From Stegostoma tigrinum (lineage: Eukaryota), in the NCBI RefSeq assembly GCF_030684315.1, contig NC_081375.1, forward strand, positions 36,438,068 through 36,502,067: a stretch of 64,000 nucleotides of DNA, given 5' to 3'. Both the position numbers and the translations under genes were made by a program. The notes beneath the pieces were generated by a model. That model saw only the letters and a list, made by a program, of their open reading frames with translations. It did no database searches and had not been told where the DNA came from. Shown here piece after piece: positions 10,801 to 13,800 of this stretch (the first letter of the stretch is position 1; each line of letters starts with the position of its first letter).

Positions 10801-13800
10801 TAAATTCAACTATGTTATGGTCATTGATCCCTCAGGAGAATTTTACACTGATCATGTGTGATACCCATCTCATTGCACATTACCAGATGTCAAATAGCCT
10901 GATCCCAAGTTTAATCCACAATATGTGGAATATCCTCAGAAACTGTCCCAAATGTGATCAACAAATCCATCCTTGTGACAACGTTTGCCAATTGGATTTT
11001 CCCAATGTACATGAAGGTACATGTTTACTCATGATTAATGTGCTGCCTTTTATACATGCCCTTAATATCTCCTTATATATTTTCTGTCCTAAAGAACACC
11101 TACATTTAAGGGCCTATAGACTACTCCCACCAGCCTCTTCTTCCTGTTGTTATTTCTTACTACCCATATGGATTTTAATCATCTGATCTAGACCATTTCT
11201 GTCACACCCTATCAATGCAGCCCACCTCCTCCCAATCCTTCTATTCCTGCCTATTGTTTTGAAAAAAAAAATCACAGACCATTGATAATTACGTTTCTGG
11301 CTTTGATCTCCTATTAACCGTATGTTAATGTCTCCTTAATGACTATAAGATCATACTGATCAAGTTCAATTTGTGCTGTTAATTCATTTAGAGTGTTCCA
11401 AATGCTAAACGCATTTAAGTAAACAGCTGTTAATTTATGCCTATTTACCATCTTTTTCCCTTTGGCCCCATTAGCTGTTTTTCTTTGTGCTTGTAAACTT
11501 TGTGTCTTCCTGTTACACTCTTGGTATTATTAAAATATTCCCAGCATGATTTAGGCAAAGTGCTGCCTTGCCTCTATGCCAGCATTGATGTCACTGCCCC
11601 ATGAACTAAAATAACGTGGTGTGGAGCTGGATGAACACAGCAGGCCAAGCAGCATCAGAAGAGCAGGAAAGTTTGACGTTTCGGGTCGGGACCCTTCTTC
11701 AGAAACTTTCCTGCTCCTCTGATGCTGCTTGGCCTGCTGTGTTCATCCAGCTTCACACCGTGTTATCTCAGATTCTCCGGCATCGGCAGTTCCTACTACC
11801 CCATGAACTGAAACCCATTTCTCCCAAACCAATCTTTAAATCATGGATTTAACTCCTTGTCTTTATCTATCCAATGCCCATGGCTCAGGGAGTGATATTG
11901 ACATTATTGACATTGGAAATTCTGTGTTTTAGTTTAAATCCCAATAATTGTTCAAAACCTTTTCAGAGGAACCCACTTTCCAGTGCTATCAATGTCATTG
12001 GTACCAATGTAGATGATGACAACCAGATCACTTCCACCCCTCTCCAAGTTCCTCTTCTTTCACAAGATGTTACCAGGTAGCCAAACTAGCCTTTGAGACT
12101 CATGTTCACAACTTCAGAGAACAGACTGTCTTCTAATTATACTGTCCCCACATGACTACACACCTATTTCCTTCCCCCATTTGAATGGTGCCCTGTACCA
12201 GGGTGCCATGATTAGTTTGCTCATCTTCCCCTCAGTTTTCATTCTTATCCACACAGCTTGCAAGAACCTCCTAAGTGCTGGACAATTGTAGGTACTGAGG
12301 CTCCTTGAAAGCAACCCTTTGGCTCCTCATACCTGCCTGACCTGCAGTCACACCCACAAACCAAGTCTGAATGAAGTAAATCAAAGGGCTGTAAAAGCCT
12401 CTTGGAGTAAAGAATCCAGGCTTCCAGCTTTGCTGCTTTAATCATTAGTTTCCTACTGAAATCACTTCTAGGTTGTGGAACTTTTGAGGCCAAGCCAACT
12501 GCATTCAAACATGAGCAGCCTCTGTCAATTGGATTTAGGTGCAGTGTCCATGTTAATATCACAGGCAGATGTGCCTTGATCAGAGGCCCCATCACCCTCA
12601 GTATCTCTTCCTCAAACTGTTCCTCTCTTTCTCTCAGCTCGACAACATTCTATTTTCATTTCGTGACATCCTGGCCTGACACCATCCTGCACTCTCCAAC
12701 ATCTTGCTACAAGCATACAGTGAGGTAAAGATGAGTGAGAACCCAGTGGATTGGGAAGCCTTTACAAACAATGAGAGGATAACAAACAAATAGTAAGAGG
12801 GGAGAAGATGTAATATAAGAGAAAACTATCTGGCCATGTAAAAGATTATAAGAGATTTTTACATATCTAAAAAAGGTAAGAGTGGCAAGAGTGTACATTG
12901 GATGACAAAAAATGAGTCTGGAGAATAAGTAATGGGGAAGAAAGGACTGGCAGAGGAACTGAACAGATACTTTGATTCAGTTTTCACAACAAAAGACACC
13001 AGTAGCATACCAGAACTTCAAGACAGGGTTTTGGGCAGAGGTGAGTGTTGTGGCCATCATTAAGGAGAAGGTGCTGGGGAAGCTGAAAGGTCTGAAAGTG
13101 CATAAATCACTGGATCAGATGAACTATACCCCTGAGTCAGAATCGTAGTATCCTTACAGTGCAGACAAATGCCATTTGGCCCCTTGAATCTCCACAGAGC
13201 CTCCAGAGAGAATCCCACCCAGACCCATCCCACCCCCAACCATCCCTGTAACCCCACATTTCCCACAGCTGACCCACCTAGCCTGGTCTTCCTTGGACAC
13301 TAAGGGGCAATTTAACATGACTAATCCACCTAATTTACACATCTTTGGACTGTGGGAAGAAACCTGAGCATGCAGCAGAAACCCACACAGATGTGGGGAG
13401 AATATGAAAACTCCACACAGACAGTTACAGAGTCATAGAATGAGAATCTCAGGACCAGCTGCAAGATCCATGTTACTCTGTCCATCATTTTAGGATCCCT
13501 AAATCACTCTAATCTCAGTCGCCCAAGGTTAAAATAAAACCCTGGCCCTGTGAGGGAGCAGTGCTAGTCACTGTGCCACCATCCTGCCCTTATATTCTGA
13601 AGGAAGTAGCTGAGGAGATTGTACAGGCATTGCTGGTGATCTTCCAGGAATCACTGGATCAGGAGGACTGGAAGATGGCCAATGTAAAAGTCCAGTTTAA
13701 GAAGGGAGGGAGGCAGAAGACAGGTATCAATAGGCCACATAGCCTGACCTCAGTTGATGGTGAGACTTTAGAGACCATTGGGTTGAGATTATTTGGAAGT

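Follow-up and report, generated by a model that had tools for sequence, protein, structure and literature searches.

The inverted repeat described here is a head-to-head pair of Penelope/Poseidon-type 3' end repeats (pLTRs), a dead insertion whose loop is exactly a minimal hammerhead core. The most probable origin (roughly 70%) is twin priming at two reverse transcriptase (RT) start sites, followed by annealing through an overlap in helix I. The join most likely fell at the predicted cleavage site via short sequence matches rather than through RNA self-cleavage.

Structure of the insertion and its host gene

The insert measures 191 bp (11608-11798), carries no ORF between its repeats and is bounded by 11-bp direct repeats (Table 1; positions refer to the window, the whole 64-kb stretch of DNA that was analysed). 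The sequence-only reading had outlined 11597..11809, a real feature that takes in the target duplication together with the insert. The two arms, 64 nt each, are reverse complements matched at 60 of 64 positions, and the four mismatches (arm positions 15, 51, 58 and 59) are all transitions. The 28-nt spacer between them coincides exactly with the hammerhead core, running on the minus strand from C3 through the cleavage triplet, just as the earlier description of inverted arms abutting the core had it. The focal copy has one A more after GUC than its sisters, and its long arm continues into a 32-nt tail with no left-side counterpart. The short arm ends at an inner TTAT site that loci A and B also use for theirs, and the three A at its outer end may be untemplated, or template bases since decayed.

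Table 1. Coordinates of the focal insertion, its relatives and the host and neighbouring genes.
Feature	Position	Strand	Remarks
GRIN2-type NMDA-receptor gene	7577-38739	+	exons
Left target-site duplication copy, 11 bp	11597..11607	+	longest flanking direct repeat is 11 nt
Three A, outer end of short arm	11608..11610	+	differ from long arm at 2/3 positions (arm positions 65, 67)
Short pLTR arm, element-sense stretch downstream of cleavage triplet	11611..11674	-	
Minimal PLE hammerhead core	11675..11702	-	fits published min-HHR consensus
Junction zone, 3-5 nt common to both arms (native helix I microhomology)	11703..11707	+	
Long pLTR arm, stem part, element sense	11703..11766	+	starts at or up to ~5 nt after cut site
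One-sided tail of long arm, 32 nt	11767..11798	+	up to near outer RT start site
Right target-site duplication copy, 11 bp	11799..11809	+	longest flanking direct repeat is 11 nt
Head-to-head insertion A	1075..1299	.	both arms with full core; 8-nt spacer; 15-16-bp target duplication
Insertion H	27234..27397	.	long-arm start within helix II; inverted short arm weak and decayed
Compound insertion D/E	30604..31057	.	15-bp target duplication
Head-to-head insertion B	40489..40695	.	14-bp target duplication; long-arm start within helix II
Copy G, native context	58916..59620	-	decayed GIY-YIG end, 3' UTR, core (C3 59018), pLTR
Amino-acid-transporter-family exon	61831-62616	-	

The direct arm opens with 3-5 bases that, reverse-complemented, match the native sequence ahead of CUGA. 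The join can be placed anywhere in this overlap; the true breakpoint falls inside it, and no finer placement is possible. The claim that the direct arm begins right after GUC holds to within +1..+6, the exact base being hidden by the overlap. Since the focal copy's own native upstream is absent from the window, the overlap length is estimated from two sisters, with three pairs against the native upstream of copy G and a 4-bp native helix I in copy E.

The DNA of the window is vertebrate, and its repeats appear to be like cartilaginous-fish ones. GRIN2-type exons on the plus strand flank the insert, which is therefore intronic, with its hammerhead antisense to the host pre-mRNA. Exons were placed at 16.6, 18.5, 19.6 and 24.0 kb (plus strand; Pfam, covering 111 of 111 plus-strand frames of at least 50 aa before 33.6 kb), with further ones at 33.6 and 37.2 kb (+); an exon at ~7.6-7.8 kb (+) we take to be GRIN2-type from its translation. 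Pfam matches with E of 0.006-0.045 to unrelated families were below the cut-off and were ignored. The transporter-family exon on the minus strand is presumably TMEM104-like. Several PLE palindromes in introns would give long dsRNA in pre-mRNA and are possible editing substrates. The window also holds a dispersed SINE-like repeat of ~310 bp (68-88% identity; 235-545, 2200-2440, 9350-9665, 13290-13430, 22360-22680 and 42740-42890), with no tRNA genes called anywhere in the window, this repeat included, and LINE-type reverse transcriptase fragments (13867-14255, 34693-35689, 46098-46752 and 47905-48894, with RVT_1 matches at 34.9 and 13.9 kb).

Hammerhead core and RNA folding

On the minus strand the order is arm, CUGAAGA, A, GGGU/CCCG/ACCC, GAAA, CGUC, arm: that is, C3-A9, one extra A, a 4-bp helix II with a 4-nt loop, GAAA and the cleavage triplet GUC. 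A palindromic, loop-less ACGU between GA and C17 stands where helix III would be, and the predicted cut lies between 11675 and 11674. The core agrees with the min-HHR consensus of metazoan Penelope-like elements (PLEs) described by Cervera and De la Pena in 2014 (PMC4209133; statements credited to publications here reflect the accessible parts of those texts). CUGANGA, GAAA, UH, the extra base before G10.1 and the G10.1-C11.1 pair (P = 0.999) are all present, the fuller likeness extending to CUGANGAH, palindromic 15.2-16.2, the lack of a loop III and NUH. The native window copies also share the short helix I of this class; the focal helix I differs, being 64 bp long through the inversion. The C-G-U-C ending is that of the fugu, cichlid, lamprey and Xenopus rows of the same paper, in which the accessible Fig. 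S3 text has no cartilaginous-fish row among its 56 rows and opposite-strand min-HHR pairs 100-700 bp apart were already noted. All conserved positions are intact in the focal core, and several sister cores are decayed. Together with copy G, which ties the repeat to a GIY-YIG frame (see below), the consensus bears out the earlier identification as a PLE hammerhead.

Rfam returned 0 matches at the gathering threshold over the whole window, so no hammerhead, and 14 matches at E ≤ 10 for 11400-12000, none of them a hammerhead and the below-threshold ones generic hairpins (miRNA-type). This silence fits a minimal hammerhead variant. We rejected a miRNA reading of the hairpin, for which there are only generic hairpin matches far under the Rfam threshold. 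Native helix I has two pairs in copy G, four in E and one or two in most other copies. Across the 10 window arms, 86.8% of helix II cells are paired. Helix I changes between C-G and U-A from family to family, a weak signal whose count is reached by 31 of 500 shuffles, and the covariation measures over these arms are reached by 31-252 of 500.

The minus-strand RNA forms a hairpin whose loop contains helix II (-143.1 kcal/mol, z = -16.2, 0/200 shuffles as stable), and the plus strand, carried by the host pre-mRNA, likewise forms a long hairpin (-129.1 kcal/mol, z = -17.8). Only C-G stands between GAAA and the cleavage triplet, so helix III cannot be closed within one strand; P(A15.1-U16.1) is 0 in the monomer fold, and the helix does not form in dimer ensembles either. 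A canonical complete, monomer-active type I hammerhead has a closable single-strand helix III and, in helix I, an internal loop, ~6 bp away from the core, for docking with loop II. The focal RNA has neither, its helix I running unbroken for 50 bp from the core. The earlier claim of a complete hammerhead with a ~64-bp helix I is right about the 64-nt arms and the core filling the loop, and goes too far in calling it complete, given that helix III is unclosable and a partner RNA is needed. From the predicted folds, the focal RNA is probably inert as a monomer.

In folding energies, which take in neither protein nor tertiary contacts and are no proof of inactivity, the active double hammerhead reaches -240.9 kcal/mol, two monomers -242.6 and the best dimer -252.4, the active dimer sitting 11.5 kcal/mol above the best one. 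That the long stem rescues the dimer was considered and rejected: helix III gains nothing (-240.9 vs -241.2 kcal/mol), and it is helix II that is exchanged in the best dimer. The 64-bp stem would hold helix I in cis and so would work against the trans helix I needed by a double hammerhead. The 64-bp helix I is a by-product of the inversion and does not come from selection. Dimer cleavage by small PLE hammerheads was reportedly described in a 2017 paper. In published assays a single min-HHR motif gave no cleavage and dimers and trimers gave low cleavage (PMC4209133; background on hammerhead dimers is in PMC6155905).

Relatives in the window and family assignment

Relatives were located within the 64-kb window by BLAST and a profile built from window copies. 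Besides those in Table 1, they include older relatives at 21.8, 43.8, 47.4, 3.2 and 31.3 kb and a decayed relative, copy I, at 56.0 kb. Target duplications of 11, 14, 15 and 16 bp were found at four of the nine loci tested, and the hammerhead core occupies the same place in 10/10 aligned arms. At locus A, two complete cores lie on opposite strands 8 nt apart in a near-perfect palindrome of ~190 bp. The compound insertion D/E runs from an inverted arm through a partial pLTR with tail and ~195 nt of probable ORF start to a second pLTR, which begins 4-6 nt before CUGA; the arrangement looks like a template jump. The putative ORF-start piece (30741-30935) gave no better than E = 7 against a long PLE protein. 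No second copy with the focal junction occurs within the window, and two scans of bacterial and archaeal genomes gave 0 matches to the focal repeat, as expected for an animal repeat.

Family membership comes through copy G, in which the pLTR with its core (58916-59018) lies behind a decayed reading frame and a 3' UTR rich in pyrimidines. This frame (59197-59493, minus strand) has 87 protein matches at E ≤ 0.001; among 10 of the 87 scanned for domains (nine of the longest plus the top match), four carry RVT_1 and GIY-YIG, two GIY-YIG only, one RVT_1 only and three none. Because the frame matches RT/GIY-YIG proteins, the repeat is the 3' end repeat of a Penelope-like element with a C-terminal endonuclease. 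The evidence for RT together with GIY-YIG at the C-terminus thus belongs to the sister copy, not the focal one, as does the position of a pLTR with hammerhead downstream of the endonuclease end. The focal copy itself has the inverted 5' pLTR, the one-sided tail (32 nt, in a family range of 30-40 nt) and the 11-bp target duplication. The Penelope/Poseidon-type label is suggested by the C-terminal order of the endonuclease and by motif likeness. The G-matching proteins also place segments of RT and endonuclease at 56242-57585, upstream of copy I. No intact RT of the focal family occurs in the window, and a protein search with the 61-aa endonuclease end found nothing. A search with the frame across the focal hairpin returned one protein among two candidates, which suggests, at the amino-acid level, another head-to-head copy joined at the core start and not at the cut.

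Two database proteins, P0016 and P0088, are apparent translations over other inverted PLE junctions (amino-acid evidence only), one joined inside GAAA and one at the core start, neither at the cut; they stand outside the arm counts given below. Another Penelope-like element, an older one, occupies 55900-57585 (-); it retains a tail, remnants of RT and endonuclease and a decayed hammerhead (C3 56009), with an upstream pyrimidine tract similar to the one in copy G. At 58768-58904 (+), an endonuclease C-terminal remnant of another PLE copy abuts the 3' end of G, either nested or in a tail-to-tail arrangement.

Inverted 5' pLTRs with a one-sided tail are common or typical in endonuclease-bearing PLEs (PMC8557442, PMC3846280), D. 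virilis Penelope among them (PMC2377424), and the tail itself is described in PMC8557442 and PMC11167929. The focal insert shares their head-to-head pLTRs, tail of 30-40 nt at one end, target duplication, shorter inverted pLTR and junction palindrome; it differs in its small size, in lacking an ORF between the repeats and in a palindrome loop that is exactly the core. Non-LTR retrozymes, which are non-autonomous, pLTR-derived and carry a type I hammerhead, have been described from one chondrichthyan genome (bioRxiv 10.64898/2026.07.22.740005). They form head-to-tail tandems with at least two hammerheads (same source), whereas the focal insert is one head-to-head copy with a single core, and this identity was rejected.

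Breakpoint survey

Ranges for the 5' breakpoints of all 18 arms were assigned by hand and compared with a uniform null over 100 nt, which is crude; arms that belong to one insertion do not count as independent. Ten arms (8 of 12 insertions) end 0-6 nt upstream of C3 (CUGA), four start inside the core (the one at 3.2 kb ambiguous), one starts ~40 nt past the cut, two lie far upstream in the ORF and one, the focal long arm, starts at the cut site, which 15 of the 18 read through. The peak at GUC that the sequence-only reading had asked for is absent (1 arm at the cut, 10 at -6..0 from C3) in this sample of one 64-kb window, 18 arms and five inversions, which a minor GUC peak could escape. For ten of 18 arms to share a 7-nt interval, p = 7e-8 (1e-6 allowing for 14 such intervals); leaving out six weak or old arms (the short arm of H, copies C1-C3 and those at 3.2 and 31.3 kb), 6/12 remain in the upstream interval (p = 8e-5; 1e-3). 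At least one arm would fall at the cut by chance with P = 0.52-0.67 (0.67 for at least one of 18), and at least one of five inversions with P = 0.27.

The window holds five head-to-head junctions, and only the focal one is at the cut. Junction D has a 2-3 nt overlap and lies ~40 nt past the cut. At junction A the entire core is present twice and no overlap stands out, which means that joining does not invariably depend on microhomology. The short arms of A, B and the focal copy end within ~3 nt of one TTAT site, and the long arms 30-40 nt further. With the other four junctions off GUC and 15/18 arms copied through an uncut site, the proposal that the focal junction is a footprint of ribozyme function is not supported.

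Origin of the junction

In L1 twin priming, two target-primed cDNAs on opposite strands are joined by microhomology, leaving an inverted 5' part. The insertion described here would differ in that its two arms are copies of one stretch and so make a palindrome, and in that the starts are fixed internal sites. The element protein would nick both target strands 11 nt apart, with one cDNA primed per nick, the short-arm cDNA at the inner RT start and the cDNA of the long arm and tail at the outer site, ~32 nt further 3'. The short-arm cDNA would copy uncut RNA through the whole core and stop a few bases upstream of CUGA, its last bases being a copy of the native helix I 5' strand. Those bases could pair with the other cDNA immediately past the cut, where the helix I 3' strand has been copied, and annealing, flap trimming and fill-in would then yield a hairpin whose loop is exactly the core, with catalysis unneeded.

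A cDNA halting just before CUGA ends in the helix I complement, which gives joins a built-in bias toward the cut site; AAA/AAAC occurs at only two places in the 124-nt unit, one of them the first base after the cut. Given this scarcity and the overlap at junction D, microhomology joining through helix I, which the sequence-only reading had offered as its second option, is the likely route. Such joining needs self-complementarity only and does without catalysis.

Both outer ends of head-to-head inserts look like RT starts. The pattern matches that of PAc, the Poseidon element of Anolis carolinensis, which has two RT start sites, a tail and a protein that nicks and extends both target strands in vitro (PMC11167929). 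Likeness to PAc covers the RT and C-terminal GIY-YIG family, the pLTR hammerhead and the two RT start sites bounding the tail; the PAc ORF starts in stem II, whereas the probable ORF start here, judging from D/E, would lie past the tail. The accessible open-access literature holds no paper mapping PLE 5' breakpoints against the hammerhead and none applying twin priming to PLEs. Two published views run counter to the mechanism favoured here: self-priming on an antisense template is preferred in PMC3846280, and the tail is ascribed to endonuclease resolution in PMC8557442.

Alternatively, the junction could record cleavage, the long arm being a run-off copy of the hammerhead 3' product and the short arm a copy of uncut RNA, with the two annealed via helix I. 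We regard this as unlikely. The long arm does start within +1..+6 of the cut and the core is intact at every conserved position; the PAc hammerhead cleaves with its protein present, and only then (PMC11167929), and min-HHR dimers and trimers cleave weakly (PMC4209133). However, the focal short arm extends across the cut site, meaning that one template or more had stayed intact there, most arms read through it likewise, and one of five inversions or one of 18 arms at the cut is chance level even before any microhomology bias. In PAc, moreover, RNA-seq reads with either end at the cut are absent from the accessible account, hammerhead mutants insert normally and uncut RNA is the main template, so cleavage is not needed (PMC11167929). 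Cleavage of the focal long arm's template is possible for this copy, though unneeded.

A single-cDNA fold-back, in which the cDNA 3' end folds onto its own helix I complement and is extended, the tail asymmetry arising later by two-site endonuclease resolution, appears a little more doubtful still. It predicts the observed plus-strand order of antisense arm, antisense core and sense arm, the extra A after GUC is common to both arms, and palindromes at inverted junctions are read as self-priming in PMC3846280. Yet the long arm has 32 nt absent from the short arm and is thus not a plain self-copy unless trimming is added, both outer ends match recurrent start sites, and junction A duplicates the whole core without evident overlap. 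Selection for a functional long-stem ribozyme or a dsRNA element serving the host gene, or else a hairpin subfamily spreading as a unit, is barely credible: the core is perfectly kept against several decayed sisters and the plus-strand hairpin in the host pre-mRNA is stable, but the ribozyme strand is antisense to GRIN2-type exons, the focal junction has no second copy in the window, the 4/64 arm divergence fits a young neutral insertion and helix III is absent from monomer and dimer ensembles.

Breakpoints upstream of the core and their significance

The breakpoint cluster upstream of CUGA is a more interesting lead than the focal junction. In the native contexts of copies G and I, a pyrimidine tract and CA at -5/-4 precede the core, followed in I by G. 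From motif likeness, the cluster could be an initiator, with the RNA starting ~4 nt before C3. It could also be a 3' splice site by analogy with D. virilis Penelope, in which the intron ends at 491 and C3 is 496 (PMC4209133, PMC2377424), and RT stalling at the ribozyme base is a further option. We rejected the idea of a common spliced leader upstream of CUGA, as no pair of copies G, E, C1, C2 and C3 beat shuffles over 100 nt (best 24/200). The clustered C3 positions are 1163, 1172, 11702, 21856, 27282, 30683, 30940, 40609, 43882 and 47475, and they span three repeat subfamilies.

A bolder reading, which we think improbable, is that such junctions form a fossil record of the Penelope RNP, a dimer with two RNAs, registering mostly uncut 5' ends and rarely GUC cuts made in vivo. 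On this reading, RNA 5' ends would lie 2-6 nt before CUGA, with the hammerhead at the transcript start; the RNAs would pair via the ACGU palindrome as a double hammerhead, each reverse-transcribed from one nick; and 10 of the 18 arms would mark the uncut 5' end, with a minority including the focal copy marking cut RNA. If this were true, thousands of genomic copies would map the RNA start and the cleavage rate during transposition and would settle the role of the PLE hammerhead.

That role and the origin of the inverted ends are stated as open in PMC8557442. The focal copy answers neither question; its neat geometry follows from the self-complementarity of helix I. Head-to-head mini-insertions are abundant (five in 64 kb), and each records two RT starts and two stops. 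A genome-wide count of their junctions could locate the template 5' end, test twin priming and bound in vivo cleavage from above.
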